Below are positions 8,538 to 28,184 of a DNA stretch of 64,000 nucleotides, in pieces. Numbering within the stretch: position 1 is the first letter of the stretch; each line of letters opens with the position of its first letter. The notes under the pieces were generated by a model. The model was not told where the DNA came from and made no database searches. It saw only the letters and a list, made by a program, of their open reading frames with translations. The translations under genes and the position numbers were made by a program. The stretch is from Thermoanaerobaculia bacterium (GTDB taxonomy: Bacteria > Acidobacteriota > Thermoanaerobaculia > UBA5066), in contig CAWEJK010000009.1 in assembly GCA_963809425.1 (NCBI GenBank), forward strand, positions 319,982 through 383,981, read 5' to 3'.

Positions 8538-8547
8538 CGGCCTGTCC

Positions 8548-9459
8548 TTACTTCAGCAGCTGCGGCGAGCGCTGGGAACCGTGCACGGCGATGTGACAGG
8601 TCGTGCAGTTCTTGTAGCGCGGCAGCGAGATATTGTGGAAAGAAGGCGGCTGCGAGCCCAGAGTCCCCTTCGCGAGCGTCGAGTGACACTCGAGACACTG
8701 CGAGGCGATCGTGGCCCTCTGCAGCTGGTGGGGATACGAGGAGCCATGCGGGATGTGGCAGCTCGTGCAGTCGCCGGCGACACCGTTGACGTGGGGATAG
8801 ACGAACGGACCGCGCACTTCCGCGTGACAGGAGACGCAGCCGGGCTCACCCGCCCGGGTCTCGCGCACCGCGTGCTTGGCCGAACGGCCGTGCGGGTCGT
8901 GGCAGGACACACAGGAGAGCGCCCCTTCTTTCAGCCTGTGTGCGTACGGAAGCGTCCGGAAGGAGGACGCCGCGTCCTGATGGCAGGTCGCGCAGAGCCG
9001 CGTCGGCTCGGACACGAGCAGGTTCGCCTGCTTCGGGCTCGACTTGTGGATCGCGTGGCACGAGAGGCAGTTGACCGCCTCGGACGACGCATGAACTCCC
9101 GTCTTGAACGACGAGCGCTCCGCGGACTGCTTGTGACAGGTCGCGCACGTCTCGGCGCCGGTACGGCCATGGAGCGTCCGGATGAGGGTCTTGTCCCCCC
9201 CGGCCTCCATGTGCTTCGTCCCGTCGCCGTGACACGTGGCGCAAACCTCGTTGCCCAGGGCGCCCTCGTGGGCGGCGCCGTAGGCACGCGTGTGGGGATT
9301 ACCCGCGAAAATCTTGGCCTCGTCGTGGCAGTCGGCGCACGCGGGGCCGGCCTCCACCTTCGCGGGAGCCGGGCTGGCTGGGGCCTGGGCCGTGGCCACC
9401 CCCGCCGTGAGCACGGCGAGGGCGGCGGCGGCGAATGCCCCGGGCGAGAGGTGTTTCAC
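8548..9459 (-). CDS. Periplasmic decahaem c-type cytochrome, MtrA/DmsE/PioA family
   Basis: 303 aa, GTG start, with signal peptide and exactly ten CxxCH motifs (CADCH, CATCH, CATCH, CLSCH, CATCH, CVSCH, CVSCH, CTSCH, CLECH, CTTCH). About 30 aa per haem is characteristic of the MtrA family. Confidence 0.8.
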   Translation of the reverse strand: MKHLSPGAFAAAALAVLTAGVATAQAPASPAPAKVEAGPACADCHDEAKIFAGNPHTRAYGAAHEGALGNEVCATCHGDGTKHMEAGGDKTLIRTLHGRTGAETCATCHKQSAERSSFKTGVHASSEAVNCLSCHAIHKSSPKQANLLVSEPTRLCATCHQDAASSFRTLPYAHRLKEGALSCVSCHDPHGRSAKHAVRETRAGEPGCVSCHAEVRGPFVYPHVNGVAGDCTSCHIPHGSSYPHQLQRATIASQCLECHSTLAKGTLGSQPPSFHNISLPRYKNCTTCHIAVHGSQRSPQLLK

Positions 9460-9471
9460 GGCCTCTACTCG

Positions 9472-11598
9472 TTACCGCGCGTGAACTTTCGCGACGTCGA
9501 GATCGGTTCCGGTGCCGTGGCAGGTTCCGCAGGCCTCGGCAGGAGCGGTCGGGTCTTTCGGGAAGAACGCCGTGTTGAGGAATGCGTGCGCGGCGACGTC
9601 GCGGCTGTCATGGCAGCCGGTGCATGCGGCAGTCGCCGAGCCGCGCGGGGAGAAGAAGTCGCGATCGGTGACGACCGGAACGTTCGTGAGCGGGAGCGGG
9701 AGCGCGTAGCTGGCCGCGTTCACGTGGCAGGCGAGGCAGTTCCGGCGGTCGCCGGGGTACAGAACCTCGTTGAAGCTGGCCCCGGTGCCGGAGTTGCCGA
9801 AGATCGTGAAGTCCTGCGTCAGATTCTCGCCCGTGTGGATGCGGTGGATCATGCGCGCGAACTCGATCGACTCGCCGGGGGCGTCCTCGGGCTTGGCACG
9901 ACGGGCAAGGTCGGTGCCGTTCGGGTTGTGGCAGATGACACAGTGCTCGATCGTGATGCGCTGGTTGCCGTGCGAGAAGAGGACCTTGAGGTCCTGGTGG
10001 CACGAGTTGCACTTCGTGAGAGAGACGACCGTCCTGCGCGGAACGACCGTCGTGCCCGTGACCGCGAAGGAAAACGGCTGGTTCGGGGCGCCCTCGTTGA
10101 CCGAGGTCGGGCCATTCGTCGGGGCCGGGTTCAGCACGATCGGGCGGCGCGTGTCGATCGAGACGGTGTACGAGCCCTTGGCCGCGGCCGGGAGGGCGTT
10201 CGTGAACGTGTATGTCGCGGTGCCCGTGGCCGCGTCATAAGTGACCGGTGTCCCGCCCGTGGGCGGAATGGCCGGGCTCTCACTGAACGGCTGGCCGTTC
10301 GCGGCCATGCCGGCGTTCGTGTAGTCGGTCGTCGGTCCGCCGAGTTTGATGCTGAGGGAGCCGTTCGAGGAGGTCTTGTAGATAGTCGGGTCGACGAACG
10401 AGCCGTCGCCGTTCTTGAGCTGGAATTTCACGGTGATCTTCTTGCCGGGGCCCGCGTTCGAAACCGAGAGGATCGTGGCCGTGTAGCCCTTGAGCTGGGC
10501 CGAGTGGAGCGGAACGACGTGGGCGTTCTTGATGCCGGCGTCCCACTCGACGTCGCCCTGGGGCTTATGGCAGTCCACGCACGTGCCGTCCGCGGCCGGT
10601 CCGACGTTCGAGTGGTTCGCGCCCGTGACGAAGTTCACGTCGCTGTGGCAGGAGCCGCAGGCCGCGATCGAGGGCTTCGTGTACCAGCTGTCTCCGCCGA
10701 CCGCCGTCTTGTCGTGGCAGGACTCGCAGTTGCGGATGTCCTGCGGGTACGTCATGCCCGGAACGACCTCCTCTTCCAGCCCCGCGTGGATGCGGTGCCA
10801 GAAGACCTGGCCGTTGTACCGGCCGCGGTCCTCGCCCGGCTCGCCGCCCGAGCCGGCGATCAGGCCCGTCATGTTGTTCGGGTTGTGGCACATCGTGCAC
10901 GTCTTGAGGTCACGGTAGTTGCCGCCGTGCAGCGCGAGCGGGTCGTGGCACTGGTTGCACTTCGCGAGCTTCGAGGCGTTCCACGTCGTCGCGACCGCGT
11001 TCGTGGACGGGACGAAGTCCAGGTACTGCGGCACCGCGTAGTACTGCTTGCCGATGATGTCGGTCGTGTTGCGCGCGCCCATGACGGCGAGCGTGTGCGG
11101 CTTCGTCGCGTCCATCGTCGCCGGGAGGGCGTTCGCGAACGTGTACTTGTAGTGGCCGGTCTCGAGCTCCTGGAATGTGCCCGTGTTGTCGCGGCCCGGG
11201 TTCGCGTTCTTGGCTGGGTCCGCGTTGAAGCCGATGTAGTTCGTGTAGTACTTCTTCGTCGCGTCCCAGACGGCCGGGATGAACCGGATCGAGATGACGC
11301 CCGGCGTCAGAAGGCCGTTGCGGTCCAGGGGTCCCTTCAGGTCGTCGGTCATGAAGATCTCGACGACGGGCTTCTGGCCCGCCGCGAAGTTCGTGACCGA
11401 GGCGATCTTCAGGTTGAAGCCCGGGCGGATGTACGTGAGCTGGTCCGGCGCGAGGAAGGCTTCCTTCTGGGTGGACGCGTAGGCCACCGGAACGTCGGCC
11501 GCCGCCGGGGTATGGGGGCTGGTGCGCGTCACGGGCGTCATGGGCACCGCGACGAGACCAGCGAGGAGAGTAAGAGCCGTACGTGATACCAGTGACAT
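9472..11598 (-). CDS. Large secreted/outer-surface decahaem c-type cytochrome, OmcA/MtrC-like
   Basis: 708 aa with an AAGGAGG ribosome-binding site 7 nt upstream of the ATG at 11598 and a signal peptide. Ten CxxCH motifs fall in two penta-haem groups (CNQCH, CTMCH, CESCH, CGSCH, CVDCH; then CNSCH, CVICH, CLACH, CTGCH, CGTCH). A T/S/G-rich beta-domain separates the two groups. Confidence 0.7.
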   Translation of the reverse strand: MSLVSRTALTLLAGLVAVPMTPVTRTSPHTPAAADVPVAYASTQKEAFLAPDQLTYIRPGFNLKIASVTNFAAGQKPVVEIFMTDDLKGPLDRNGLLTPGVISIRFIPAVWDATKKYYTNYIGFNADPAKNANPGRDNTGTFQELETGHYKYTFANALPATMDATKPHTLAVMGARNTTDIIGKQYYAVPQYLDFVPSTNAVATTWNASKLAKCNQCHDPLALHGGNYRDLKTCTMCHNPNNMTGLIAGSGGEPGEDRGRYNGQVFWHRIHAGLEEEVVPGMTYPQDIRNCESCHDKTAVGGDSWYTKPSIAACGSCHSDVNFVTGANHSNVGPAADGTCVDCHKPQGDVEWDAGIKNAHVVPLHSAQLKGYTATILSVSNAGPGKKITVKFQLKNGDGSFVDPTIYKTSSNGSLSIKLGGPTTDYTNAGMAANGQPFSESPAIPPTGGTPVTYDAATGTATYTFTNALPAAAKGSYTVSIDTRRPIVLNPAPTNGPTSVNEGAPNQPFSFAVTGTTVVPRRTVVSLTKCNSCHQDLKVLFSHGNQRITIEHCVICHNPNGTDLARRAKPEDAPGESIEFARMIHRIHTGENLTQDFTIFGNSGTGASFNEVLYPGDRRNCLACHVNAASYALPLPLTNVPVVTDRDFFSPRGSATAACTGCHDSRDVAAHAFLNTAFFPKDPTAPAEACGTCHGTGTDLDVAKVHAR

Positions 11599-11835
11599 CG
11601 TCAGCCTCCTTGCCGGAAATGAATTTGCGAAACGTTAACGAACAGACGTTCGAAGGAAGTGGCCGTTTTCATCCGATGGTCAGAGTAGGAGCAAGGCCAT
11701 ACCGAAGCTTTGATTCAGTTGCATCAAATTACTGCAAGGTACAAGCTTGGGGTTTGTCCGGCACATATTGATCAGAAAGAGGTAATCTCCTCCGAACAGC
11801 AGGTCCGCTTCTCGGAACTCTCGTTGGAGTACCTT

Positions 11836-13509
11836 ATGCGGCGTTTCCGCAACGCATTGCTCGCACTTGGACTTCTCGCGGCGTTCGTGCTGCCGGCCCG
11901 GGCCGACGATGCCTTTCTCCGGAGTGGAACGCTCTCCGTCGGGGTGGCCGACGACTTTTTGAACCAGAAAGCCGAATTCCAGTACGAGCTCCGGACGGAC
12001 GACGGGGAAACCCTCCGCCTTCGCTTCACGGAACCCCCGGAGGGACTCCGGACGGGAGACCGGCTCGCCGTCCACGGGCGCGCCCGCAATGGGGGCTTCG
12101 ACGTCGACGAGGTCGAGCCGCTCGTGGATTCTCGCGCTCCTCTTTCGCCTCCTTCCTCCCGCGAGGCCCTCAGCGCCTGGACCGTCGGTGCCAAACGCGT
12201 GCTCGTCATCCTGGTGAACTTCACGAACGACACCTCGCTGAACGGAACGACCGTCACGAACGCCCAGAATCTCTTCTTCGGCGCCGGCTCGAGCGTGGCG
12301 CGCCTCTACAACGAGGCCTCCTACGGCCTCGTCTCGATGACGGGCGACGTCGCCCTCGTCACGGCCACCGTCGTGAAGCCCACGACGTGCGCCACGGGCA
12401 CGATCCAGTCGCAGGGGAACACGCAGGCCGCGGCGGCCGGCTACAACCTGGCGAGCTACAACTTCGTTCTCTGGGTCTTTCCGGGGATCGGCGCGTGCGG
12501 CTGGAACGGGCTCGGGTACGTGGGCGGGTCGGGCGCGTGGATCAACGGCACGGGGTCGATGGGCCTGCTCGTCGCTGCCCACGAGCTGGGCCACAACTTC
12601 GGCGTCTACCACGCGCACTCGTGGGACTGCGGGGCCGTTCCGATCGCGCCCTCGGGCTGCTCGCGGAGCGAATACGGCGACCGATTCGACGTCATGGGGA
12701 ACTCCCGCGCGGGACACTTCAACGCGCAGTTCAAGGACACCTTCGGATGGCTGCCGGCCGGCTCCGTGAGGGTCCACGGCGGCGGCTCCGCGACGTACAC
12801 GATCGGCGCCCTCGAGGCGCCGGGCGAGTCCGCGTACGCCGTGAGGATCCCGACGGCGATGGCGGGCCGCACGTACTGGATCGAGTGGAGGAACCGGACC
12901 GGCTTCGACGCTCCGGAGCCGGCCACGATCCTGAACGGCGGGCTCATCCGGCTCGCGCCGAGCGCCGTCGGCGGGACCGACCTTCTCGACATGAAGCCCG
13001 CGACGGCGACGTTCGACGACGCCGAGCTCGACGTCGGCGCGACGTTCACGGACCCCGAGCTGTCGCTCACGATCACGGCGCTCTCGAAAACGGCGACGTC
13101 GCTGACGGTTCAGGTGAACTATGCCGCGCCGCCCCCCGCGTCGCTGTTCCACACCTTGACGCCGTGCCGCGTCCTCGACACGCGGAACCCGAGCGGCACG
13201 TACGGCGGTCCGGCGCTCTTCGCGGGCCAGGCCCGCTCGTTCGTGGTCCGCGGCCGCTGCGGCGTGCCCGCGACGGCGAAGTCCATCGCCGGGAATCTCA
13301 CCGTCACGGCCGCCTCGGCCGCCGGCTCGATCCGTCTCGTCCCGGGCGGCGCGCCGGTCACGGGCACGTCCACTTTGAACTTCCAGGCGGGCCAGACCCG
13401 CGCGAACAACGTCGCGATGGCGCTTGGCCCGAGCGGCGACGTCGTCGTCGACGGTCTCCCGACCGGAACCGCGCACGTCATCCTGGACGTCGTCGGCTGG
13501 TTCGAATAA
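11836..13509 (+). CDS. Secreted zinc metallopeptidase, gametolysin (M11)-like HEXXHXXGXXH
   Basis: Internal ATG at 11836 precedes a signal peptide (MRRFRNALLALGLLAAFVLPARA). The motif AAHELGHNFGVYHAHSW matches the HExxHxxGxxH zincin signature. Confidence 0.7.
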   Translation: MRRFRNALLALGLLAAFVLPARADDAFLRSGTLSVGVADDFLNQKAEFQYELRTDDGETLRLRFTEPPEGLRTGDRLAVHGRARNGGFDVDEVEPLVDSRAPLSPPSSREALSAWTVGAKRVLVILVNFTNDTSLNGTTVTNAQNLFFGAGSSVARLYNEASYGLVSMTGDVALVTATVVKPTTCATGTIQSQGNTQAAAAGYNLASYNFVLWVFPGIGACGWNGLGYVGGSGAWINGTGSMGLLVAAHELGHNFGVYHAHSWDCGAVPIAPSGCSRSEYGDRFDVMGNSRAGHFNAQFKDTFGWLPAGSVRVHGGGSATYTIGALEAPGESAYAVRIPTAMAGRTYWIEWRNRTGFDAPEPATILNGGLIRLAPSAVGGTDLLDMKPATATFDDAELDVGATFTDPELSLTITALSKTATSLTVQVNYAAPPPASLFHTLTPCRVLDTRNPSGTYGGPALFAGQARSFVVRGRCGVPATAKSIAGNLTVTAASAAGSIRLVPGGAPVTGTSTLNFQAGQTRANNVAMALGPSGDVVVDGLPTGTAHVILDVVGWFE

Positions 13510-13530: not shown

Positions 13531-14805
13531 TCAGGTGACGGCCGGACCCTCGTCCGCGAAGCGCCGCCAGCGCTCCTCGTCGAGCACACGCCGGAACCGC
13601 GCGACCGCTTCGACGAGGTCGGAAAACCGCGTCGCGAGCGGCGAGAGCCCGAAACGGATCAAGTCGGGCGGCCGGAAGTCGGGAATGACGTTCATCTCCC
13701 CGATGAGCGCGCGGTCTACGGCGAGGCCCTCGGGGTGGCCGAACGAGACGTGCGCGCCGCGCCGCGCGGCGTCGCGCGGCGAACGCAGCGTCACGCCGCG
13801 CGTTTCGAGAGCCGACTCCCACAGGCGCACGAGGAACTCCCCGAGGGCCACGGTCTTCTTCCGGGCCGGCTCGATACCCGCCTCGAGCGCGAGGTCGACA
13901 CCCGCCTCCGCGCCGACGAGCGAAAGGATCGGCGGCGTGCCCACGAGGAACCGCGAGATGTCCCGCGCCGGCTCGTACCCGTCCCGGAACGAGAAGGGCT
14001 CGTGGCGCGAGAACCAGCCGGGAATCGGGTTCTGAAGAGTCTCCTGCAGCGCGCGGCGCACGTAGAGAAAGGCGGGCGCGCCCGGCCCTCCGTTCAGGTA
14101 CTTGTACGTGCAGCCGACCGCGAGATCCGCGCCGGACGCCTCGAGGTCGACCTGGACCGCGCCGACGGAATGGCTGACGTCCCAGAGAACGAGCGCGCCT
14201 TTCGCGTGGGCGCGCGCCGTGACCGCCGGGAGGTCGTGGAGGAATCCGCTCCTGTAAGCGACGTGCGACAGCGACACGAGCGCCGTGTCCTCCGTGATGG
14301 CTGCGCCGAGATCCGCGTCGTCGATCGCGATGCCGTCGCGCGACGGGACGACGACGACGCCGTGTCCCGCCTCCAGGAGGGCCGCCGCGCCTTCGAGGAC
14401 GTAGAGATCCGACGGAAAGTTCAAAGCGTCCGTGACGATCGTGCGGCGTCCGCGCCGCGCCCGGAGCGCCGCCACGGCGAGCTTGAAGAGATTCACGCTG
14501 GTGCCGTCGGACACGGCGACCTCGCCGTCCCCCGCGCCGAGGAGACGCGCGAGCTTGTCGCCGACGCGGCGCGGCGCGTCCACCCACCCGTCGTTCCAGC
14601 CCCGAACGAGGCGCGCGCCCCATTCCTCCTGGACGGCGCGCCCGACGAGAGCCGCCGACCTCTTCGGCAACCGCCCGAGCGAATTGCCGTCGAAATAGAG
14701 GAGGTCCTCGTCGTCGAACACGAACTCGTCGCGGAAGCGCGCAAGCGGGTCCGCGCGGTCGAGCGACCGGGCCTCCTCGCGGAGCGCTTCCCAGGGAATC
14801 GTCAA
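13531..14805 (-). CDS. kynU: Kynureninase-like PLP-dependent enzyme (aminotransferase class V fold)
   Basis: The N-terminal ~175 codons of ORF 13531..15321 are R/G-rich junk overlapping hemL. The real protein starts at a TTG whose last base overlaps the hemL TGA stop (TTGA, 14802-14805). Kynureninase-type motifs are present (LLYFDGNSLGRLPK, ...VGCTYKYLNGGPGAPAFLYV). Confidence 0.55.
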   Translation of the reverse strand: MTIPWEALREEARSLDRADPLARFRDEFVFDDEDLLYFDGNSLGRLPKRSAALVGRAVQEEWGARLVRGWNDGWVDAPRRVGDKLARLLGAGDGEVAVSDGTSVNLFKLAVAALRARRGRRTIVTDALNFPSDLYVLEGAAALLEAGHGVVVVPSRDGIAIDDADLGAAITEDTALVSLSHVAYRSGFLHDLPAVTARAHAKGALVLWDVSHSVGAVQVDLEASGADLAVGCTYKYLNGGPGAPAFLYVRRALQETLQNPIPGWFSRHEPFSFRDGYEPARDISRFLVGTPPILSLVGAEAGVDLALEAGIEPARKKTVALGEFLVRLWESALETRGVTLRSPRDAARRGAHVSFGHPEGLAVDRALIGEMNVIPDFRPPDLIRFGLSPLATRFSDLVEAVARFRRVLDEERWRRFADEGPAVT

Positions 14806-16163
14806 CCGCCGGCCGGAAGTGAAAAGGCCGCTCTCAGCCCGGCTTCGTGAGCCTTCACGGTGGCCGCGACGTCGCGTGCCGTGTGCGCGGTCGAGACGAA
14901 CATCGCTTCGAACTGCGCCGGAGCCACGAAGACGCCGCTCCGGAGCAGCGCGTGGAACCAGCGCTTGAACGCTTCGAGGTCGGACTTCTTCGCGTCGTCG
15001 AAGTTCTTCACGGGGCCCACGGTGAAGAACGGCGTCAGGATCGATCCCACGCGGTTGATCGAGACGCGGTCCTGGACGCCGAGCTTCTTCGCGGCGGCGT
15101 TCAGCCCGCGTTCGAGCTCCTTCGCGGTCTTCTCGAGCTTCACGTAGACGGCGGGCGTCAGGCAATCGAGCATCGCCTTCCCCGCCGCCATCGCGAGCGG
15201 GTTCCCGGAGAGCGTTCCGGCCTGGTACACGGGGCCGTCCGGCGCGATCCGCGCCATGAGGTCCGCGCGGCCGCCGTAGGCGCCGACGGGCAGTCCCCCG
15301 CCGATGATCTTGCCGAGGCACGTCAGGTCGGGCCGGATCCCGTACAGCTCCTGCGCTCCGCCTCTCGCCACCCGAAAGCCGCTGATGACCTCGTCGAAGA
15401 GCAGCAGCGCTCCTTCGCGGTCCGCGATGCGGCGGAGGCCCTCGAGAAAGCCCGGGGCAGGCGCCACGACGCCCATGTTCGCGGCGATCGGCTCGACGGC
15501 GATGACGGCGATGCGCTTCGGATGCGCCCGAAAGAGGTCCTCGACGGACTCCAGGTCGTTGTAACGCGCGGTCAGCGTGAGGCCGGCGAGAGAGCTCGGG
15601 ACGCCGGGCGAGCCCGGAATGCCGAGCGTCGCGAGACCCGAGCCCGCCGAAACGAGAAACGAGTCGGCGTGCCCGTGGTAGCAGCCCGCGAACTTCAGGA
15701 CGAGGTCGCGGCCCGTGGCGCCGCGCGCGAGGCGCAGCGCGCTCATCGCGGCCTCCGTTCCCGAGGACACGAACCGCACCTTCTCGATCGACGGGAAGGC
15801 CTTCGTGACGCGCTCGGCGAGCTCGACCTCCCCCTTCGAAGGCGCGCCGTAGGACGTGCCGCGCGGCAACGCCCTGCGGACCGCCGACAGGACCGGCCCG
15901 TACGCGTGCCCGAACACGAGCGGCCCGTACGACATGACCCAGTCGACGTACCGGTTCCCGTCCGCGTCGATCAGGGTCGCGCCGCGGCCCTTCTTCACGA
16001 AGAACGGCTGGCCGCCCACGGACGCGAACGAGCGCACCGGCGACGACACGCCGCCTGGCATGCGTTTCTTGGCTCGTTCGAAGAGCGCTTCGGATTGAAG
16101 AGTTCTGCGGTGACGCTTTCGACCGGTAGTGGCGCTTCGTGCTGATTTATCGCTCATCGTCAT
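14802..16163 (-). CDS. hemL: Glutamate-1-semialdehyde 2,1-aminomutase
   Basis: 453 aa with family hallmarks (ALFERAKKRMPGGVSSPVRSF, ...DEVISGFRV...). The exact start within the first ~30 codons is uncertain. Confidence 0.9.
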   Translation of the reverse strand: MTMSDKSARSATTGRKRHRRTLQSEALFERAKKRMPGGVSSPVRSFASVGGQPFFVKKGRGATLIDADGNRYVDWVMSYGPLVFGHAYGPVLSAVRRALPRGTSYGAPSKGEVELAERVTKAFPSIEKVRFVSSGTEAAMSALRLARGATGRDLVLKFAGCYHGHADSFLVSAGSGLATLGIPGSPGVPSSLAGLTLTARYNDLESVEDLFRAHPKRIAVIAVEPIAANMGVVAPAPGFLEGLRRIADREGALLLFDEVISGFRVARGGAQELYGIRPDLTCLGKIIGGGLPVGAYGGRADLMARIAPDGPVYQAGTLSGNPLAMAAGKAMLDCLTPAVYVKLEKTAKELERGLNAAAKKLGVQDRVSINRVGSILTPFFTVGPVKNFDDAKKSDLEAFKRWFHALLRSGVFVAPAQFEAMFVSTAHTARDVAATVKAHEAGLRAAFSLPAGG

Positions 16164-16372
16164 GTCGCATTTCTTTCTGCTATGCGGCGGCCGCTTTGCG
16201 GCCGCCGACGGAAGTCAATCTCTGCCCGAATGTCCGGTGTCAAGGGCGCGCTCGCGCGCCGCGCAGCGGTCACCGACCCTTGACATCGGACATTCGGGAG
16301 CACATTCGTTTCTTCGGGTGGCCGCGAATGCGGCCACCGATAGCAGGAACCCCCTCTTTCTTCCCTCTTCTT
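16164..16372. repeat. ~210-bp palindromic MITE/REP-like intergenic element (copy A) between hemL and hemB
   Basis: Terminal inverted repeat CTGCTAT...ATAGCAG. Internal GC hairpins are GCGGCGGCCGC-TTT-GCGGCCGCCG and GGTGGCCGC-GAAT-GCGGCCACC. The central long hairpin is CCCGAATGTCCGG-TGTCAAGGG-[32 nt]-CCCTTGACA-T-CGGACATTCGGG. The element is flanked by pyrimidine tracts (TTTCTTTCTG and CTCTTTCTTCCCTCTTCTTCTAAG). The core is ~85% identical to copy B at 44222-44436. Confidence 0.6.
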
Positions 16373-17344
16373 CTAAGCCAGCCACTCGGCGGCTTCCTTC
16401 GCGTGATACGTGAGGATGAGGTCCGCGCCCGCGCGCCGCATCGACGTGAGGATCTCGAGCGTCACGCGCTTGCCGTCGATCCAGCCGTTCGCCGCCGCGG
16501 CCTTCACCATCGCGTACTCCCCGGACACGTTGTAGCAGGCGACGGGCACGTTCGTGGCCTCCTTCGCCGCGCGGACGACGTCGAGGTACGCGAGCGCGGG
16601 CTTGACCATCACGAGGTCGGCGCCCTCCTCGACGTCCGAGAGGATCTCCTTCACGCCCTCGCGCACGTTCGCCGGATCCATCTGGTAGGAGCGCCGGTCG
16701 CCGAAGGAGGGGGTCGACCCGGCGGCCTCGCGGAACGGGCCGTAGAACCCGGACGCGTACTTCGCGGCGTACGCGAGGAGCGCGACGTCGCGAAATCCCC
16801 CGCCGTCGAGCTTCGCGCGGATCGCGCCGACGCGCCCGTCCATCATGTCGGAAGGCGCGACGACGTCCGCGCCCGCCGCCGCGTGCGCGAGCGCCTGCGC
16901 CGCGAGGAGAGGCAGCGTCGCGTCGTTGTCCACGGTGCCCTCGGCGAGCGCGCCGCAGTGGCCGTGGTCCGTGTACTCGCACAGGCAGACGTCCGTCATG
17001 ACGACCGTGGCCGGGCTCTCGGCCTTGATCGCCCGCACCGCCCGGCAGACCGGGCCCTCGGGATCGGCGCCCGAAGTGCCCATCGCGTCCTTGCGCTCGG
17101 GAATCCCGAAAAGGATCACGGAGAGGACGCCGAGGGAGGCGAGGCCCTTCGCGTCTTTCGCGGCCAGGTCGGCCGAGACCCGGTCGACGCCCGGCATCGA
17201 CGGCACCGGCTGCCGCACGCCGCGTCCCGGCACGACGAAGAGCGGCGCGATGAAGTGCGACGGAGCGAGAGACGTCTCCCGCACGAGCGTCCGCAGGCTC
17301 TCGGAGCGCCGCAGGCGGCGGTAGCGGTGGAGGGGAAAGCTCAT
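16373..17344 (-). CDS. hemB: Porphobilinogen synthase (delta-aminolevulinic acid dehydratase)
   Basis: Internal ATG (MSFPLHRYRRLRRSESLRTLVRE...) is the genuine start; the upstream 40 codons are junk. Conserved active-site lysine regions are present (VAPSDMMDGRV, ...YQMDP...). The start overlaps the hemD stop (ATGA at 17341-17344). Confidence 0.9.
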   Translation of the reverse strand: MSFPLHRYRRLRRSESLRTLVRETSLAPSHFIAPLFVVPGRGVRQPVPSMPGVDRVSADLAAKDAKGLASLGVLSVILFGIPERKDAMGTSGADPEGPVCRAVRAIKAESPATVVMTDVCLCEYTDHGHCGALAEGTVDNDATLPLLAAQALAHAAAGADVVAPSDMMDGRVGAIRAKLDGGGFRDVALLAYAAKYASGFYGPFREAAGSTPSFGDRRSYQMDPANVREGVKEILSDVEEGADLVMVKPALAYLDVVRAAKEATNVPVACYNVSGEYAMVKAAAANGWIDGKRVTLEILTSMRRAGADLILTYHAKEAAEWLA

Positions 17345-18102
17345 CGTATTTCCTTCCGGAGGAGGGCGAGGAGTTCGGAGAGGCGCGCGTGGGCGGGAAC
17401 CAAAGGCGTGGGCAGCCCCCGGGCCGTGACGGCCTTCGCGGTCTCGGGCCCGAGCACGCCCCATCTTAACGGCGGGAGAGACGCGGCCGGCGCGGCCAGG
17501 GCGGCGAGAAGCGCGTCGAGACCCGCCGTCGAGCCCACGGCCACGGCGGCGAACCGTCTGGCACGGAGGTCGGAGAGGATCGACGGATTCATCTCGGAGG
17601 CGGAGAGAGGACGTTTTTCGTAGACCACGGGGGCGACGAGCTGAATGCCGAGCGCACGAATTCCCTCGAACGCCTCCGGGGCCGAATCCGAGCCGTGTGG
17701 CCAGAGGAGGCGCATGTGCGAAGGAGCAGGGGACTTCTTCAGGTAGGCGATGACGCCCGCGGCTCCCGGTATCTCGGGAACGACGATCGGCGCCGCGTTC
17801 TGGGTCGAGGCCGCGGCGCGGCGTCCCGGGTCGCTGCCCCCCATGATCACCCTTCTCAGCAGCTCCCCGGTGCCCTCGCCGACCGCCAGCATCTGCGCGA
17901 ACGACGAGCGAAAGAGCGGAAGAAGAAACCCGATCGTCTCCTTCGACGAGACGACGAGCGTCGCGCCATCCGTGTCGAACGCGAGCGCCTCGGCAATCCC
18001 CTGGGGGCGCGGCGAGACGGCGTGCGTGTAGAGAACGGTCACGTCCCCCGAGAAGGCGTCTTCGGATCCGGCGGCGCCGGAGCGAAGGAGAAGGATCCTC
18101 AC
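17341..18102 (-). CDS. hemD: Uroporphyrinogen-III synthase
   Basis: 253 aa, GTG start, HemD-like length with weak family similarity. Position in the hemA-C-D-B order supports the call. Confidence 0.65.
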   Translation of the reverse strand: MRILLLRSGAAGSEDAFSGDVTVLYTHAVSPRPQGIAEALAFDTDGATLVVSSKETIGFLLPLFRSSFAQMLAVGEGTGELLRRVIMGGSDPGRRAAASTQNAAPIVVPEIPGAAGVIAYLKKSPAPSHMRLLWPHGSDSAPEAFEGIRALGIQLVAPVVYEKRPLSASEMNPSILSDLRARRFAAVAVGSTAGLDALLAALAAPAASLPPLRWGVLGPETAKAVTARGLPTPLVPAHARLSELLALLRKEIR

Positions 18103-18130
18103 GGCGCGAGGATACCCAGTCGCGAGCGCA

Positions 18131-19175
18131 TCACGGAGTCGTCGCTCGCGCCGCGTCGATGAGCCGCGCAGCGCCGCGCGCGAGGAGGCGCTCGGCGAGC
18201 TGGCGGCCCAGGGAGGAGGAGAAAGAAGAAGAGGAAGAGAAAGAGGAAGAGGAAGATTTCTTAGAAGGAAGAGAGAGGGGAACCTGTGGCAGAGGCGTGC
18301 TCAAATCTTCTTCCAGGCATTCGCGCCCATCGAGTGAGAGCACGCGGCCCACGAGCTTCAGCGTGCGATTTCCCTCTTCACCTTCTAAGAATCCTCGAGC
18401 GCCGACAGGCGCTCGACATCCCCCTCTTAGAACAAAACAGAAGCTCTCTCTCGGCCTCCGCCGCAACTCGTGAGCTGAAATCGTCCATTTGTTCCAGCGC
18501 CGCGATCGTCTCGGCGTCGTCCGCCCGGCAGCCGATGCCGAGCGCGCCCTGCGCCGGCGCGCCGAGCATCTCGTCCCGCTCGAGCCGGCGCGTGATGACG
18601 CCTCCCCTGTCGAGCCTGTCGAGGCCCGCGCACGCGAGGATGAGCGCGTCGGCGCGGCCCTCCTCGAGGCGCTGGAGGCGCGTGTCGACGTTGCCGGCGA
18701 TCGCGACCGTCACGAGGTCGGGCCGGATTCGGAGGAGCTGCGACACGCGCCGGGGCGACGACGTGGCCACGCGCGCGCCGGGTGGAAGCGCGCTCACGCT
18801 CGTCACGCCCGCGTGACGCGAGGCGACGACGAACGCGTCGCGCGCGTCCGCGCGTCTCGGCACGGCGGCGAGCCGGACGCCCGCGGCCACGACCGTGGGG
18901 ACGTCCTTGAGGGAGTGGACCGCGAAGTCGATCTCGTTCGCGAGGAGCGCCTCGTCGAGCGCGCGCACGAAGACGCCCGCGGCATCGCCTCCGGGAGGGG
19001 CCTTGCCCTCGCTGGAGAGCTGGTCCCCCTGGGTGCGGATGATGACGGTCTCGACGGGGCGGCCCGAGATCCGGGAAAGCTCCGCCGCGAAGGCTCCCGA
19101 CTGCGCGCGGGCGAGCGCGCTGGCGCGCGTGCCCATCCGGAGCGGCCGCGTCGGGACGGCGGGAGCCGCCGTCAT
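18131..19175 (-). CDS. hemC: Hydroxymethylbilane synthase (porphobilinogen deaminase), disrupted by an apparent +1 frameshift at a C5 run (18420-18424). It carries an ~18-aa Ser-rich insertion near the C-terminus.
   Basis: The N-terminal 250 aa lie in the frame of ORF 18378..19463 (MTAAPAVPTRPLRMGTRASALARAQS...). The conserved GGCRAPVGA...LGRQLAERLLARGAARLI C-terminus lies in the frame of ORF 18131..18466. The span is 1045 nt, which is 3n+1. The ATG at 19173-19175 overlaps the hemA TGA stop (ATGA). Confidence 0.8.
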
Positions 19176-20443
19176 TTGGAGCTTTCGTCGAGGCGGAACA
19201 GGGCGCGCACGGCCGCGGCGCGCTCCAGGCGCTCCGAGCTGTCGCCTTCCTTCAGGCCGACCGTCGGATCGTGGAGGATGTGGGCGACGAGCGTCTCCGT
19301 GAGCCGCTCGACCGCGGCGCGGTCGGGCGCGCTCAGCGCCGCGAGCTTGCCGGAGTGCTTGTCGAGCTCGGCGCGCCGGATGCTCTCGAGCTTCTCGCGA
19401 AGCCCGCGCACGACGTCGGTCTGCAGGAGTCCGCTGCGCCAGTCCTGGAACTTCAGGACGCACTCCTCGACGATGGTCTCCGCGCGCGGCACTTCGCCCG
19501 CGCGGGCCCGCGCGTTCTCGGCCGCCATCTCCTGCAGCGCGTCGAGGTCGTAGCGGTAGACGTCCGCAAGCTCGCCGACCTCGAGTTCGACGTCGCGCGG
19601 CACGGCCAGATCGAGGACGAGAAGCGGTCCGCGGCGCGGCGCCGCGTGGAGCGCGGTGCGAAGCGCCCCGGCCGTCAGGACGGGCTCGGTCGCATTCGTG
19701 GCGGAGAGAACGAGGTCCACGCCCGCCGCCGCCCGGGCGCGGTCATCCCACCGCACGGCACGCCCCCGGCTGGCCGCGGCGAGAGCCTCGCCCCTTTCGT
19801 GCGAGCGGTTCGTCACGAGGATCTCCGAGACGCCGTCCTCCGCGAGGAGGCGGGCCGTGAGCTCGGCGGTCTCGCCCGCCCCGATGAGGAGGACCTTTCG
19901 GCCCTTCAGCGACTCGAAGACGCGCGCCGCGAGGCCGAGCGCGAGACCGGCGACCGAGGTGGGCTTCTGGCCGAGCGCCGTCTCCGCCCGCACGCGTTTG
20001 CCGCATTCGAGAGCGCTCATGAACAGCCGGTTCATCACCGTTCGGATCGTTCCGGCCGCCGTCGCGAGGCGGTGCGCCTCGCGGATCTGCCCGAGGATCT
20101 GCGCCTCTCCGACGACCATGGAGTCGAGGCCCGCCGCGACGCGGAAGAGATGGCGCACCGTCGCGTCGCCGCGGCCCGAGAGCGCCGCCTGCCTCAGGAC
20201 CGCGTCGTCCACGCGGTGGAAACGCGAGAAGAATCCCGCGAGCGCGTCGAAGCTGTCCTCGTGCACGGCGATCCCGTAGATCTCGGCGCGGTTACAGGTG
20301 GACACGATCGCGCCTTCCGACAGGATGTGCTCCGCGAACAGGCCGTCGAGCGCCTCACGCGCCTTCTCGGGCGTGAAGGCGAGTCTCTCTCTCAGGTCGA
20401 GAGGCGCCGCGCGATGGTCCCAACCGACGAAGAGGAGGTTCAT
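19172..20443 (-). CDS. hemA: Glutamyl-tRNA reductase
   Basis: The genuine start is MNLLFVGWDHRAAPLDLRERLAF at 20443. Family motifs are present (STCNRAEIYG, GAGETAE NAD-binding). The ~250 upstream codons of ORF 19172..21247 are junk overlapping hemX. Confidence 0.9.
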   Translation of the reverse strand: MNLLFVGWDHRAAPLDLRERLAFTPEKAREALDGLFAEHILSEGAIVSTCNRAEIYGIAVHEDSFDALAGFFSRFHRVDDAVLRQAALSGRGDATVRHLFRVAAGLDSMVVGEAQILGQIREAHRLATAAGTIRTVMNRLFMSALECGKRVRAETALGQKPTSVAGLALGLAARVFESLKGRKVLLIGAGETAELTARLLAEDGVSEILVTNRSHERGEALAAASRGRAVRWDDRARAAAGVDLVLSATNATEPVLTAGALRTALHAAPRRGPLLVLDLAVPRDVELEVGELADVYRYDLDALQEMAAENARARAGEVPRAETIVEECVLKFQDWRSGLLQTDVVRGLREKLESIRRAELDKHSGKLAALSAPDRAAVERLTETLVAHILHDPTVGLKEGDSSERLERAAAVRALFRLDESSK

Positions 20444-21282
20444 GACGTGAAGTCGTGCAGCTTGCTGACGAAGAGGTTTACGGCGGTGTACGAAAGAAGC
20501 ACGAGCAGGAACCCCGCGACCGACAGCCGCGCCGTCGAGACGGGAGCCGCGCCGCGGTGCGCGCGCAGGATCACGAAAATGTAGAACGCGAGCGTCGCGA
20601 GCGCGAACCAGATCTTCGGATCGAGCGCCCACAGCGGATGCTCGCCCTTCCACATGCGCGACGCCCAGAAGAGCCCGAGGAAAAGCCCGACCGCGAGGGC
20701 GAGGACACCGAGAGAGAGCGACGTGCGGTTCGCGCGCTCGAGGTACGAGAGGCTCGGGAGCCGCGAGGCCGGACCCGAGAAGGCGCGCTTCTTCAGCGAT
20801 CGGCCGACCCACAGATACAGGAGCGACAGCGCGCACGCGACCGCGAACGCGGCGTACGCGAGCATGTTCAGCGTGACGTGCAGCGCGAAGACCGGGCCCT
20901 TCAGCTCGGGCGCGTCCGCGTGGACGGGCGACGTCAGGGACACGGAGAGGAGCAGGAACGCGAGGGCCGCGGGCATCAGGAACGGGCCCAGGGACCGGTC
21001 CCGGTGCCGTAACTCGAGGACGATGTTCAGGACCGCGAGAAAGAACCCGAAGAGCTTCATCGAGCCGAGGAGGTCGCGGTACGGAACCGTGTGGAGCGCG
21101 GCGGACCGCGCGTAGAGCGTGCCGAAGTTGAAGGCGGCGCCGAGGACTGCGAACGCGGTCGCCGCCCGGCCGATCGCCTGGTGCGTCCGGAAGAGCGACG
21201 TCGTGTAGAGAACCGCCGACAGGGAATAGGCCACGAGGGCCGCCCAACCGAGCGTCGTCGCGAGCTGCGCGGCATCCGTCAC
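20440..21282 (-). CDS. hemX: CcsA/ResC-like cytochrome c assembly membrane protein (HemX-type, as in Bacillus hemAXCDBL)
   Basis: Polytopic membrane protein with a W/aromatic-rich CcsA-like C-terminus (LFWASRMWKGEHPLWALDPKIWFALATLAFYIFVIL). Its stop overlaps the hemA start. The start is assigned to the GTG at 21282 (VTDAAQLATTLGW...) and is uncertain. Confidence 0.6.
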   Translation of the reverse strand: MTDAAQLATTLGWAALVAYSLSAVLYTTSLFRTHQAIGRAATAFAVLGAAFNFGTLYARSAALHTVPYRDLLGSMKLFGFFLAVLNIVLELRHRDRSLGPFLMPAALAFLLLSVSLTSPVHADAPELKGPVFALHVTLNMLAYAAFAVACALSLLYLWVGRSLKKRAFSGPASRLPSLSYLERANRTSLSLGVLALAVGLFLGLFWASRMWKGEHPLWALDPKIWFALATLAFYIFVILRAHRGAAPVSTARLSVAGFLLVLLSYTAVNLFVSKLHDFTS

Positions 21283-21362
21283 GGCCGCGATTATAGGAAC
21301 CCCGTGAGAACGACGATTTCGTGCGGATGCATCAGGCGCCCCGAACCGGCTCGCGCGGCCGA

Positions 21363-21379
21363 TGCTAACCTCCCGCGCC
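21363..21379 (+). promoter_or_regulatory. Conserved 17-mer TGCTAACCTCCCGCGCC abutting the hemE start codon
   Basis: Near-identical copies lie immediately 5' of the hemN GTG (28169-28184) and in the hemN 5' duplicate (26260-26276). A variant GATGCTAATCTCGACACGCC lies at 58284-58303. Confidence 0.3.
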
Positions 21380-22423
21380 ATGCCCGATGCCGCACGGCGT
21401 CCGTCGCGCCAGCGTTTCCTCGATGCGGCCTTCGGGCGTCCGACGGACGTCCCGCCGGTGTGGCTCATGCGCCAGGCCGGCCGCTACCTGCCCGAATATC
21501 GCGACGTCCGCAAGCGCCTCAAGTTCCTCGAGCTGTGCGCCGACGTGCCGGCCGCCATCGAAGTGACGCTCCAGCCGTTCCGGCGTTTCGGGATGGACGG
21601 CGTCGTCTTCTTCTCCGACATCCTCATCCCGCTGCCGCCGATGGGCATCGAAGTCCAGCTCGACGAGGGAGGCCCGAAGCTCCCGAACCCGATCCGCACC
21701 GCCGCCGACGTCGCGAAGCTCCGGGAATTCGACCCGCACGTCGAGACCGCGTTCGTGATGGACATCCACCGCGGCATCAGGCGCATCGTCCACGACGACG
21801 CGGCCACGATCGGCTTCTGCGGGGCGCCGTGGACGCTCGCGACGTACGCGATCGAGGGCGGCTCCTCGAAGTCGTTCACGGCGGTCAAGACGATGATGCA
21901 TCGCGAGCCGAAGGTGCTCGAGGGCCTGCTCGCGAAGCTGGCCGACGCGTGCGGCCGGTACCTCGCGGCGCAGATCGAGTCGGGCGCGGACCTCGTGCAG
22001 ATCTTCGACTCGTGGGCCGGTGAGCTCTCGCGCGCCGACTACGACCGATTCGCGCGCCCCGCGACCGAGCGGCTCCTGTCGCACCTGCCGCGGCGCGGGC
22101 AGGTGCCCGTCGTCCACTTCGCCTCGGGCTCGTCGCACCTCATCGACTCGTTCGCCCGGATGCCGGTCGACGTGCTCTCGATCGACTGGAAGCTTCCGCT
22201 CGACGAGGCGCGCAAGCGCGCGCACGGCAAGGCGCTGCAGGGCAACGTCGATCCGGGCCTCCTCCTCGGAACGCCGGAGGGAGTCCGGGAAGCCGTGTAT
22301 GCCGCGCGGCGGGCGGCGGGCCCGACCGGTCACATCGTGAACCTCGGACACGGCATCCTGCCGCCCACGCCGATCGAGAACGTCGCCGCGTTCGTCGCGG
22401 CGGCGCGCGCCCCGCTGCCGTAG
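21380..22423 (+). CDS. hemE: Uroporphyrinogen decarboxylase
   Basis: URO-D signature PPVWLMRQAGRYLPEY. The second in-frame ATG at 21380 is preferred over the ORF-track start at 21362. Confidence 0.9.
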   Translation: MPDAARRPSRQRFLDAAFGRPTDVPPVWLMRQAGRYLPEYRDVRKRLKFLELCADVPAAIEVTLQPFRRFGMDGVVFFSDILIPLPPMGIEVQLDEGGPKLPNPIRTAADVAKLREFDPHVETAFVMDIHRGIRRIVHDDAATIGFCGAPWTLATYAIEGGSSKSFTAVKTMMHREPKVLEGLLAKLADACGRYLAAQIESGADLVQIFDSWAGELSRADYDRFARPATERLLSHLPRRGQVPVVHFASGSSHLIDSFARMPVDVLSIDWKLPLDEARKRAHGKALQGNVDPGLLLGTPEGVREAVYAARRAAGPTGHIVNLGHGILPPTPIENVAAFVAAARAPLP

Positions 22424-26236: not shown

Positions 26237-26259
26237 ATCCTGAAGGCATTCTACGCCGG

Positions 26260-26359
26260 TGCTAACCTCGCGCCCGCGAGCGCCATTCCGATCCGACTCG
26301 GCGGCGAGACGCTCCCGATGACCACGGAGCTGTTCGACAAAGACAACGTCCAGTCTTAA
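26260..26359 (+). pseudogene. Decayed ~100-bp duplicate of the hemN 5' end, including the TGCTAACCTCGCGCCCG motif
   Basis: 26260-26355 is ~90% identical to 28169-28265. The copy reads (A)SAIPIRLGGETLPMTTELFDKDNVQS then stops. The GTG start is mutated to GCG. Confidence 0.6.
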
Positions 26360-26423
26360 GGACGATTCGTCAATATTGCGTCCGGCACGATCCGTGCTGT
26401 ACGTCACAAAACCGGAGGCCCCG

Positions 26424-28064
26424 ATGAAGAACTCAACGGTTGCCGGCCTGGTGCTTCTCCTCGCCGCACCTGTCCAGGCGCAGACACCGAACGCCCCGCG
26501 CCCCGTGAAGGGCTCCGTCGAGGCCGTCGCCGCCGAGGTCGAAGTGCTCGTCGTCGACAGGAAGGGCACGCCGGTCGACGGCCTCACGAGGGACGACTTC
26601 AGGCTCTTCGTGAACGGCAAGGAGATGCCGCTCGACTGGTTCGAGGCGCCGCCGGCGCCGGGCGCTTCCGCGACGCCTTCCGTTCCCGTTGCTCCAGCCG
26701 CGGCGGCGGCTCCGCCGGCAACGGCGTCGACGCTTTCGTCCCGCGCCCACAGCACGGTCTTCGTCATCTCATCCCTCCACGTCGACGCGGGCGCCCAGAG
26801 AGCAGGCCTCGATGCCCTGCGCGCGTATGCGGACCGCCTGCCGGACGGCGAACAGGCCTCCGTCTATCTCCTGGACAACGGCGCTCGCCGCCTCGTGGGA
26901 TTCACGAGCGACCGCAAGGTGCTGAAGAAGGCGATCGAACGGCCGAAACGAATCCTTCCGTCGTCGTACGCCTTCGACGCGCGGGACGACGAGTGGGTCG
27001 GCCGCTCGCGCCAGATGCTTCGAAACCTCGGGACCGTTTTCGACGGCCTCGCGAGCCGGCCCGAATCGAAGACGGTCGTCATGCTCACGGGCCCGCTCTG
27101 GCCCACGGGAAACATCGTCCCGCCGAGCGGCGCGAGCCTTTTCAAGGGGTCGCACGCCGCCCCCGCGGGCGGCCCCAGGTCTTCGGCCAGCCCTCTCGAC
27201 ACGGCCGGCGCGGTCACGCATTACAGCAACCCGGTGACGACCCGAGGCGAGCGCCAGTGGAACTTCCTGGGGGAGGCCAGAGACCTCGAGAACCAGGCTT
27301 TCCTCGCGCGCGCCACGGTCGTCGCGCTCGACCCGAGCGGCATCCTCGCGCCGGCCGGACAGGCCGACTCGAAGGAGCCCGACAACCGGGACCTTCTCGC
27401 GGCGGGCGATTCGTGGGAGTTTCGGAACGACACGTTCGCCTTGATCGCGGAGGCGACGGGCGGCTCCCGCCTCGGGTTCTCGAACAAGCCCGTCGACCTC
27501 ATCCTCGGCGCGTCGCGCCTCCTCGCAAGGCGTTACCGCCTCGGCTTCACGCCGCCGGACGGGACGTCCGCGCGGCGGGACATCCGCGTGGAGATGGCGC
27601 GCCCCGGCCTCGTCGTGCGCACGGCGAGCGGCCAGCGCTCCCTGACGGCCGAGACCGCCGCGCGCGCGCGCTTCTCGGGACTCCTCCTTTCGTCGGATGC
27701 GCCCCAGGGTGACTTCACGATCGCGGTCGAGATGAAGTCCCGGGTCTCGAAACGCACGGACGACGCGCTCCCCTTCGACATCCTCGTGCCCGTTTCCGGC
27801 GTCTACGCCGAGGAGCGGGGCGAGAGCAGGCGGGCGGAGCTGGAGCTTCTCGTCTCGGCGGTCGACGGCGAGGGACGCGCCTCGGAGCCGATCGTCATCC
27901 CGTTCTCCGTCGAGCTCGACACGGCGGCGGCCCGGGACGGCGCCTTCTTCCGCAAGGACTCGAGCTTCAGCATCGACAAGCGCTGGAAGGGGCGCCTGTT
28001 CGTCGGCGTGCGCGACACGGCCACGAACCGCCTCGGGGCGGTCGCGATGCCGATCGGAGGCTGA
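26424..28064 (+). CDS. Secreted VWA-domain protein (paralog of 59848..61482)
   Basis: A GGAGG ribosome-binding site lies 6 nt before the ATG at 26424. Signal peptide is MKNSTVAGLVLLLAAPVQAQ. The protein shares a VDG(K/L)...F(V/F)... VWA-like core and a conserved C-terminal block (...DTATNR(L/I)G...) with 59848..61482. Confidence 0.5.
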   Translation: MKNSTVAGLVLLLAAPVQAQTPNAPRPVKGSVEAVAAEVEVLVVDRKGTPVDGLTRDDFRLFVNGKEMPLDWFEAPPAPGASATPSVPVAPAAAAAPPATASTLSSRAHSTVFVISSLHVDAGAQRAGLDALRAYADRLPDGEQASVYLLDNGARRLVGFTSDRKVLKKAIERPKRILPSSYAFDARDDEWVGRSRQMLRNLGTVFDGLASRPESKTVVMLTGPLWPTGNIVPPSGASLFKGSHAAPAGGPRSSASPLDTAGAVTHYSNPVTTRGERQWNFLGEARDLENQAFLARATVVALDPSGILAPAGQADSKEPDNRDLLAAGDSWEFRNDTFALIAEATGGSRLGFSNKPVDLILGASRLLARRYRLGFTPPDGTSARRDIRVEMARPGLVVRTASGQRSLTAETAARARFSGLLLSSDAPQGDFTIAVEMKSRVSKRTDDALPFDILVPVSGVYAEERGESRRAELELLVSAVDGEGRASEPIVIPFSVELDTAAARDGAFFRKDSSFSIDKRWKGRLFVGVRDTATNRLGAVAMPIGG

Positions 28065-28168
28065 GGATGCGCGCTCGCGCCGCCGCGTGCCCGGGCGGTG
28101 ACGGTCCTCGAGTGAGCGCGGCCCCGACCTCCTGATGCAATTGAAGGACGAGACTCCGTCGCGACGAG

Positions 28169-28184
28169 TGCTAACCTCGCGCCC
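28169..28184 (+). promoter_or_regulatory. TGCTAACCTCGCGCCC motif immediately 5' of the hemN GTG start
   Basis: Same motif as 21363-21379 and 26260-26276. Confidence 0.3.

Follow-up and report, generated by a model that had tools for sequence, protein, structure and literature searches.

A haem biosynthesis operon with a kynureninase gene overlapping the end of hemL in a lineage of Thermoanaerobaculia

Genes and junctions of the haem operon

A 64,000-nt stretch of a Thermoanaerobaculia bacterium genome (assembly GCA_963809425.1, contig CAWEJK010000009.1, positions 319,982 to 383,981 of the forward strand), referred to below as the window, was analysed around a haem biosynthesis operon at 13531–21282 whose last gene, kynU, encodes a putative kynureninase and overlaps the end of hemL. 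The real genes of this region all lie on the minus strand, in the order hemX, hemA, hemC, hemD, hemB, a 209-nt spacer, hemL and kynU. The G+C content of the window is ∼69%, which gives rise to many long spurious open reading frames (ORFs). Genes were called from hidden Markov model (HMM) scans with NCBIfam and Pfam, and the NCBIfam equivalog cut-offs were applied. The features of the operon are as follows.

20440–21282, minus strand: hemX-like membrane protein gene (CcsA/ResC family), first gene of the operon, GTG start; PF01578, 88.6 bits
19172–20443, minus strand: hemA, glutamyl-tRNA reductase; TIGR01035, 378 bits (cut-off 209.6), with GlutR_N, Shikimate_DH and GlutR_dimer domains
18131–19175, minus strand: hemC, hydroxymethylbilane synthase, read in two frames; TIGR00212, 235 bits for the part before the frameshift, and PF03900 in the other frame
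17341–18102, minus strand: hemD, uroporphyrinogen-III synthase, GTG start; PF02602, 46.6 bits
16373–17344, minus strand: hemB, porphobilinogen synthase; NF006762, 490.5 bits, and PF00490, 480.9 bits
16164–16372, minus strand: hemB-hemL spacer of 209 nt, with a GA-rich tract and a palindromic element
14802–16163, minus strand: hemL, glutamate-1-semialdehyde 2,1-aminomutase; TIGR00713, 574.6 bits (cut-off 527.3), and NF000818, 612.9 bits
13531–14805, minus strand: kynU, kynureninase, TTG start; TIGR01814, 263.4 bits (cut-off 246.4), with PF22580 (KYNU_C) and PF00266

The operon is thus of the hemAXCDBL type, with hemA, a PF01578-type hemX, hemC, hemD, hemB and hemL contiguous on the same strand; hemX stands first and hemC is frameshifted in the assembly. 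A sequence-only reading of the window had proposed the identities of the hem genes, their order and their overlaps, and the HMM matches and the junction sequences bear these out at the same positions. The hemX-like protein scored 93.9 bits against the CcsB model TIGR03144, below the cut-off of 187.6, and is therefore not regarded as a true CcsB. Its orthologues in relatives are 280–287 amino acids long and start at the same position. HemD is 61–77% identical to its orthologues in relatives. On direct reading of the sequence, stop and start codons overlap as ATGA at hemX/hemA, hemA/hemC and hemD/hemB, and as TTGA at hemL/kynU. Such 4-nt overlaps are common in bacterial operons and are unremarkable on their own.

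A perfect TATAAT is located 7 nt upstream of the hemX GTG (21283–21300, minus strand), inside the 79-nt gap between hemX and the divergent hemE. No good −35 element was found upstream of hemX in this gap. The position of the TATAAT suggests that the hemX mRNA would be leaderless or nearly leaderless.

The kynU product and its conserved junction with hemL

The kynU product of 424 amino acids exceeded the cut-off of the kynureninase model TIGR01814 and scored 84.7 bits against PF22580 (KYNU_C), for which the threshold is 27. The next-best NCBIfam models were cysteine desulfurases, at ∼60 bits and far under their cut-offs. Residues 9–415 align with residues 4–406 of the Pseudomonas fluorescens kynureninase chain 1QZ9 (E = 7.4e-111; 407 residues), and in this alignment Ser36, Trp64, Asp201, Tyr226-Lys227, Gly281-Thr282 and the RFG arginine (P. 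fluorescens numbering) are all kept. In the numbering of the window protein, Y234-K235 (with the pyridoxal 5′-phosphate (PLP) lysine, in a YKYLN motif), D209 (the PLP-N1 aspartate) and the arginine of RFG (substrate carboxylate) match Y226-K227, D201 and RFG of 1QZ9, while W70 and G289-T290 align with the specificity positions W64 and G281-T282. The catalytic and specificity residues checked were invariant across 12 aligned sequences at 59–100% identity. Trp64 and Gly281-Thr282 are reportedly typical of bacterial enzymes that prefer kynurenine, whereas the human type, which prefers 3-hydroxykynurenine, is said to have His102 and Ser332-Asn333. In human kynureninase, H102 is critical for substrate binding and N333 is a key PLP-interacting residue (PMC9191678).

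By all sequence criteria checked, kynU therefore encodes a member of the kynureninase family, with no sign in its sequence of a change of substrate. The sequence-only reading had left open that the gene codes for a class-V PLP enzyme of tetrapyrrole metabolism and had been mis-assigned. The HMM assignment of 13531–14805 is to kynureninase and not to other AAT_V members; together with the KYNU_C match, the 1QZ9 match with its active-site residues and the occurrence of tryptophan 2,3-dioxygenase (TDO) genes beside the nearest unlinked kynU relatives among the matches listed, this speaks against that idea. Kynureninase cleaves kynurenine to anthranilate and alanine, and we know of no tetrapyrrole intermediate of the C5 pathway that resembles its substrate. 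A direct role of KynU in tetrapyrrole chemistry has no support.

Related kynU loci were those fetched from genome and metagenome contig scans, and the matches listed, to which the following counts and identities refer, were mostly distant kynU loci. For linkage, the negative control was the set of distant loci with a kynU identity below 62% and an upstream sequence longer than 1.5 kb. Among these matches, hemL lay immediately upstream of kynU in all 12 loci that had a kynU of at least 63% identity and upstream sequence, but in the upstream flank of none of the 121 control loci. The 12 linked loci represent 11 distinct kynU sequences including that of the window; they are mostly from Thermoanaerobaculia, and the annotations of the close homologues place them in metagenome-assembled genomes of Thermoanaerobaculia or Acidobacteriota. 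The two genes overlap or abut in loci L001, L083, L085, L088, L089 and L090–L093 and in a JGI contig. The junction reads TTGA in seven distinct kynU sequences (the window included), GTGA in two, and TGA abutting GTG in one. The linkage of hemL and kynU is conserved but lineage-specific; the sequence-only reading would have been undone by a generic aminotransferase whose place beside hemL was not conserved, and this is not what the loci contain. It had also held that the pairing was not a known one, and full-text searches of one library returned no mention of it.

The loci in which kynU is 87%, 75%, 72% and 69% identical to that of the window are collinear with it. Each has hemE, the divergent hemX-A-C-D-B-L-kynU series, a convergent M11 peptidase gene and an MtrC-like multihaem cluster, and the kynU start always overlaps the hemL stop by 4 nt. 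In L089 (kynU 64% identical) an M1 peptidase gene is located upstream of hemX and the downstream genes are unrelated; kynU starts one base past the hemL stop. This locus, the most distant member of the clade, also carries at 5516–6787 a gene for a 423-amino-acid multi-pass membrane protein without a Pfam match, between hemC and hemD. In L088 (kynU 69% identical) only hemL-kynU is present, beside an unrelated divergent GH94 gene. Here, at 8690–8760, hemL breaks off ∼10 nt ahead of its MPGG motif, where unrelated AT-rich sequence adjoins it; this may reflect a true rearrangement or a chimeric contig. Since the 5′ end of hemL is cut at the breakpoint, L088 was given little weight.

Where the neighbours of unlinked kynU genes in the same matches were recognisable, the commonest included genes for tryptophan 2,3-dioxygenase, for kynurenine formamidase and for a regulator of the Lrp type. 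In the closest outgroup, a Chloroflexi contig (L094), kynU is 59% identical and has a TDO gene directly upstream. The kynU of the clade is 54–59% identical to those of Chloroflexi and 47–51% identical to those of other Acidobacteriota (Bryobacterales, Holophagae). Being closer to Chloroflexi than to other members of its own phylum, it hints at a possible horizontal acquisition. No TDO or formamidase gene was found anywhere in the 64-kb window, or within 10 kb of kynU at any of the clade loci. In a protein search with TDO, the best 120 matches were all Chloroflexi-like, a result that has no bearing on the TDOs of Thermoanaerobaculia.

The signals around the junction were also read. In all linked loci kynU begins with TTG or GTG, without a Shine-Dalgarno-like sequence upstream; the sequence thus combines a stop/start overlap with a downstream gene that lacks strong initiation signals. 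A sigma-70 promoter scan of the operon region found no consensus promoter, and none between hemL and kynU. Terminator-like matches in the region were at chance level, with none between hemL and kynU. As the reading frames overlap and leave no intergenic space, an independent kynU promoter would have to sit inside hemL. From the weak start, the lack of a Shine-Dalgarno sequence and the lack of a separate promoter we infer that kynU is translationally coupled to hemL and co-transcribed with the hem genes. Ribosomes ending on hemL would reinitiate on kynU (termination-reinitiation), and the level of KynU would track expression of the haem operon.

Could the adjacency instead be synteny inherited in a narrow lineage, with kynU transcribed and translated independently and the overlap incidental? 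The block from hemE to the cytochrome genes is collinear in most clade loci, so that adjacency alone is weak evidence of an expression link. Four-nucleotide overlaps are frequent in any case, and the one locus reduced to hemL-kynU is the possible chimera with the truncated hemL. However, a promoter buried in hemL would be needed and no promoter-like site was found in the region, the TTG or GTG start without a Shine-Dalgarno-like sequence recurs in all loci, and L089 keeps the adjacency although both of its flanks differ. We consider such an unlinked arrangement unlikely.

It is fairly probable, in our judgement, that the locus is a complete C5-pathway haem operon, hemX-A-C-D-B-L, in which a canonical kynU has been captured at the 3′ end and translationally coupled to hemL. 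KynU would then most likely cleave kynurenine for tryptophan catabolism or for the supply of nicotinamide adenine dinucleotide (NAD) or anthranilate, and would not act on tetrapyrrole precursors. Neutral capture of a kynU gene, possibly acquired horizontally, and its fixation in the ancestor of the clade is the simplest account. Co-regulation of the pair with haem supply is plausible, because tryptophan 2,3-dioxygenase, the upstream enzyme of the pathway, is a haem protein.

Several points weigh against this account. No kynA, kynB, KMO or HAAO gene was found in the 64-kb window or in the ∼21-kb clade loci. Anaerobes have been described among the relatives of this lineage, and O2 is required for the kynurenine pathway. 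Finally, the 4-nt overlap is kept down to ∼69% identity and the adjacency at 64%, in at least two contexts. This persistence exceeds what passive synteny easily explains and hints at selection for co-expression.

A different explanation is recruitment: an enzyme of the kynureninase family would now serve haem or cytochrome physiology, acting either on a gamma-keto-alpha-amino acid other than kynurenine or in an anthranilate/3-hydroxyanthranilate redox shuttle for extracellular-electron-transfer cytochromes. In either version the coupling to hemL would be adaptive. The recurrence of the junction in all 12 clade loci in differing contexts, the lack of nearby kynA and kynB, unlike in the outgroups, the MtrC-like multihaem cytochrome cluster beside the pair in most clade loci and the silence of the searched literature on the pairing are consistent with it. 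However, KynU shares all the catalytic and specificity residues checked with the P. fluorescens enzyme, which prefers kynurenine, the pair persists in L089 without a cytochrome cluster, and by established C5-pathway chemistry the tetrapyrrole intermediates are unlike a kynureninase substrate. We regard recruitment of this kind as improbable. Similarly slight credence is given to a broader proposal, that kynureninase in this metal-respiring Acidobacteria clade is integrated with haem and cytochrome physiology, through haem-dependent tryptophan oxidation tied to haem supply or through anthranilate-type shuttles. If true, such integration would explain why kynU translation has stayed slaved to hemL over a long divergence.

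The haem operon and the kynureninase are each textbook cases; the novelty is that one acidobacterial lineage has the two in a fixed, overlap-coupled pairing. If the pairing reflects only operon hitch-hiking, it is a small curiosity and a warning against guessing functions from operon context. If co-expression was selected, the pairing would point to a connection, so far unrecognised, by which tryptophan breakdown and haem supply are tied together, metabolically or through regulation, in organisms rich in multihaem cytochromes.

The hemC frameshift and the repeats among the haem genes

In the window, one extra T in the run 18434–18437 (minus strand) splits hemC into two frames, a feature overlooked in the sequence-only reading. 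Beyond residue ∼246 the first frame ends at a stop at 18378, and a second frame encodes the C-terminal domain. The extra T is absent from three relatives in a DNA alignment, and the site is intact in two more. When one T is removed, an intact protein of 347 amino acids is obtained, collinear with orthologues of 326–356 amino acids. Since the organism needs haem and none of the relatives compared has the extra base, the T is probably a homopolymer assembly error. The four-T run, compared with the sequences of four relatives, does yield two frames, and would accord with a hem operon that is defective here, hemC being a pseudogene or a programmed-frameshift gene. Nevertheless, the remaining hem genes are all intact, at least 36 c-type haem sites are encoded nearby and require haem, the downstream hemC frame is fully conserved as protein, the four relatives whose sequence was read there have no frameshift, and homopolymer indels are typical of assembly errors. 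A real frameshift is thus very unlikely. Programmed frameshifting was also considered and rejected, as the only Shine-Dalgarno-like element is downstream of the T run, the wrong side for +1 stimulation.

The hemC and hemD genes do not overlap in the window, where the hemD GTG is located 29 nt past the hemC stop, whereas in relatives they overlap as GTGA. Some 29–32 additional bases set the hemC stop and the hemD start apart (18103–18133), with CCGTGA on both flanks, and a hairpin at 18113–18095 covers the hemD start. The C-terminal domain of HemC in the inner clade (window 18210–18285; L001, L083, L085) has a Ser-rich insert of variable length (PSSPSKKS...SSS), which is missing from L089 HemC. 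The antisense DNA of this insert consists of a GA-rich tract and a copy of a dispersed ∼20-nt motif.

This motif has the consensus GATTTTCTTAGAAGG(G)TGAAgaggg and is often preceded by a GA-rich tract. It had seven matches in the window against 0.3 expected, and its core occurs at 1.26 per 10 kb in the clade loci compared with 0.055 per 10 kb in 2.0 Mb of loci from other phyla (∼23-fold). Copies in the window are as follows.

18250–18278, plus strand: 20-nt motif, first copy within hemC
18371–18399, minus strand: 20-nt motif, second copy within hemC
18250–18399, minus strand: inverted pair of the motif GATTTCTTAGAAGG(T)GAAGAGGG inside hemC, with arms 18371–18399 and 18250–18278; position weight matrix scores 34.9 and 34.3 bits
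29631–29659, plus strand: 20-nt motif
31190–31218, plus strand: 20-nt motif, in hemY
31305–31333, minus strand: 20-nt motif, in hemY
32094–32122, plus strand: 20-nt motif
55571–55599, plus strand: 20-nt motif
55651–55665, minus strand: 20-nt motif

The copies often form inverted pairs, 75–125 nt apart, with predicted closing stems of 15–25 bp. Such pairs were found in hemC (window, L001, L083, L090), hemD (L083, L085, L001, L089), hemY (window, 31190/31305) and the hemB-hemL spacer (L085, L090), and at one intergenic site of the window, 55.57–55.67 kb. The predicted closing stem of the hemC pair in the window has z = −3.4, and the same pair is present in L001, L083 and L090. In the ∼21-kb loci of relatives nearly all copies lie in hemC, hemD or the spacer, and none in the cytochrome genes. 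Within genes the motif is translated in several frames, giving GFLEGE, DFLRR and ELLRRV in the sense orientation and PSKK and LLRK in the antisense orientation, which forces rare codons on a 70%-G+C genome.

Four roles for the motif were rejected. A transcription-factor operator is unlikely because the motif is absent from the divergent hemE/hemX promoter region. An extended Shine-Dalgarno sequence or an anti-Shine-Dalgarno complement matches poorly, and many copies are antisense. Plain insertions of miniature inverted-repeat transposable elements (MITEs) do not fit, as the pairs in hemC and hemD enclose genuine, conserved coding sequence. Nor does an RNA structure under strict conservation, since the arms are decayed in hemD of the window and in hemC of L085, L089 and L093. 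The motif may have arisen as a mobile repeat that genes tolerate in frame, or it may act in cis as RNA or DNA; in the latter case, it could be an element that coordinates haem-gene expression.

At the hemB stop, the hemB-hemL spacer opens on a GA-rich tract; the palindromic element, 170 nt long (16346 to 16177), comes next. The termini of the element are inverted repeats, CTGCTATCGGTGGCCGC and GCGGCCGCCGCATAGCAG, and it would form two terminal hairpins and a long central hairpin; the predicted RNA fold has −111.8 kcal/mol, z = −6.6 against shuffled sequence. A second copy of the same architecture (∼190 nt) is located at 44237–44437, with the same terminal repeats (TTCTGCTATCGG...) and a central GTCAAGG...CCTTGAC hairpin. 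With two copies in the window, no copy of this palindromic element was seen in the loci of relatives. At the corresponding site hemB and hemL overlap in L001, with no element; L083 has a gap of ∼33–60 nt, and L085 (135-nt spacer) and L090 carry a different inverted-repeat element of ∼95 nt. The sequence-only reading had noted a repeat at 16164–16372, which is indeed present, but had missed its nature as a palindromic insertion without counterpart in relatives.

No promoter-like or terminator-like site was found in the hemB-hemL spacer. Rfam gave no relevant match in the operon (E up to 1) or in the whole window (gathering thresholds), and no tRNA gene was found there. The element has terminal inverted repeats, more than one copy, and presence or absence at orthologous sites, and it is best described as a MITE-like, lineage-specific insertion in a site that varies. 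Transcription probably runs through it, and we take it not to be essential to the operon. Neither copy has a clear target-site duplication, and no transposase gene was found in the window. In practical terms, hemC, an essential gene, probably contains an assembly error in this sequence, and the haem genes harbour a family of short repeats that are inserted into these genes or evolve inside them.

Flanking genes and comparison with known systems

Further haem genes lie upstream of the operon, on the opposite strand.

21362–22423, plus strand: hemE, uroporphyrinogen decarboxylase, divergent from hemX across the 79-nt gap; TIGR01464, 388 bits (cut-off 303), and PF01208
28185–29612, plus strand: hemN; TIGR00538, 520 bits (cut-off 325)
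29653–30639, plus strand: hemH; TIGR00109, 262.6 bits (cut-off 124.6)
30636–32048, plus strand: hemY; TIGR00562, 206.6 bits (cut-off 97.9)

With these four genes, all above their NCBIfam equivalog cut-offs, every step from glutamyl-tRNA to protohaem is encoded within ∼19 kb, in agreement with the sequence-only reading that essentially the whole protohaem pathway is nearby. That reading placed the haem genes around a ∼48-haem cytochrome operon; the flanking position holds, but the cytochrome ORFs at 2668–11598 (minus strand) have 36 CXXCH motifs (10 + 10 + 11 + 5). The region of the cytochrome cluster (2668–11598, minus strand; 11710–13509, plus strand) also encodes a 645-amino-acid protein, whose orthologues have no recorded Pfam match, and a 251-amino-acid protein, whose orthologues in relatives weakly match a cytochrome-b family (Ni_hydr_CYTB). 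The cluster looks like a porin-cytochrome-type conduit. Together with the convergent M11 peptidase gene it is kept beside kynU in most clade loci.

Between hemE and hemN, which are adjacent in L001, the window has ∼5.7 kb with genes for an FHA/winged-helix regulator, a Ser/Thr kinase with TPR repeats and a protein matching an acidobacterial VWA-domain model. The VWA-domain gene (26376–28064) is bracketed by a 95-nt direct repeat (93% identical) at 26259–26353 and 28168–28262. The hemN start lies in the second copy of the repeat; what the first copy leaves is a hemN-like stub of 13 codons.

The operon can be compared with the hemAXCDBL operon of Bacillus subtilis and Staphylococcus aureus, described by Hansson 1991 and Schroder 1994 (as cited in PMC5801465). 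Both have the same six genes, including a HemX of PF01578, the same C-D-B-L order and tight packing. The resemblance to the Firmicute operon put forward in the sequence-only reading stands for this gene set; the order differs at the start, where hemX precedes hemA here, whereas Bacillus has hemA-hemX. The window also has a seventh gene, kynU, probably coupled to hemL, and its host is an acidobacterium with the protoporphyrin branch (hemN, hemY and hemH nearby). HemX lowers the abundance of glutamyl-tRNA reductase in B. subtilis and S. aureus (PMC5801465), and the window protein is likened to it by family membership only. From gene content and order, the operon is a putative counterpart of the Firmicute hemAXCDBL operon in a Gram-negative phylum.

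The enzyme of the window, known from its sequence, resembles P. fluorescens KynU (1QZ9) over its full length with the active-site residues conserved, but differs in setting. In Proteobacteria and Chloroflexi, kynU is accompanied by kynA (TDO), kynB or a regulator of the Lrp type, whereas the kynU of the window is part of a haem operon without a visible kyn partner. Compared with kynA-kynB-kynU clusters, the likeness is that of the enzyme family, and the difference is that neither a TDO nor a formamidase gene accompanies kynU at the distance searched. The spacer element resembles MITEs, repetitive extragenic palindromic (REP)-like elements and Rickettsia palindromic elements in its terminal inverted repeats, dyad symmetry, second copy and empty orthologous site; it differs from MITEs in being found in two copies only and in the missing target-site duplication and transposase partner. 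The 20-nt motif, with its inverted pairs and its translation inside genes, is in turn like the Rickettsia palindromic elements, which are inserted in frame into genes.

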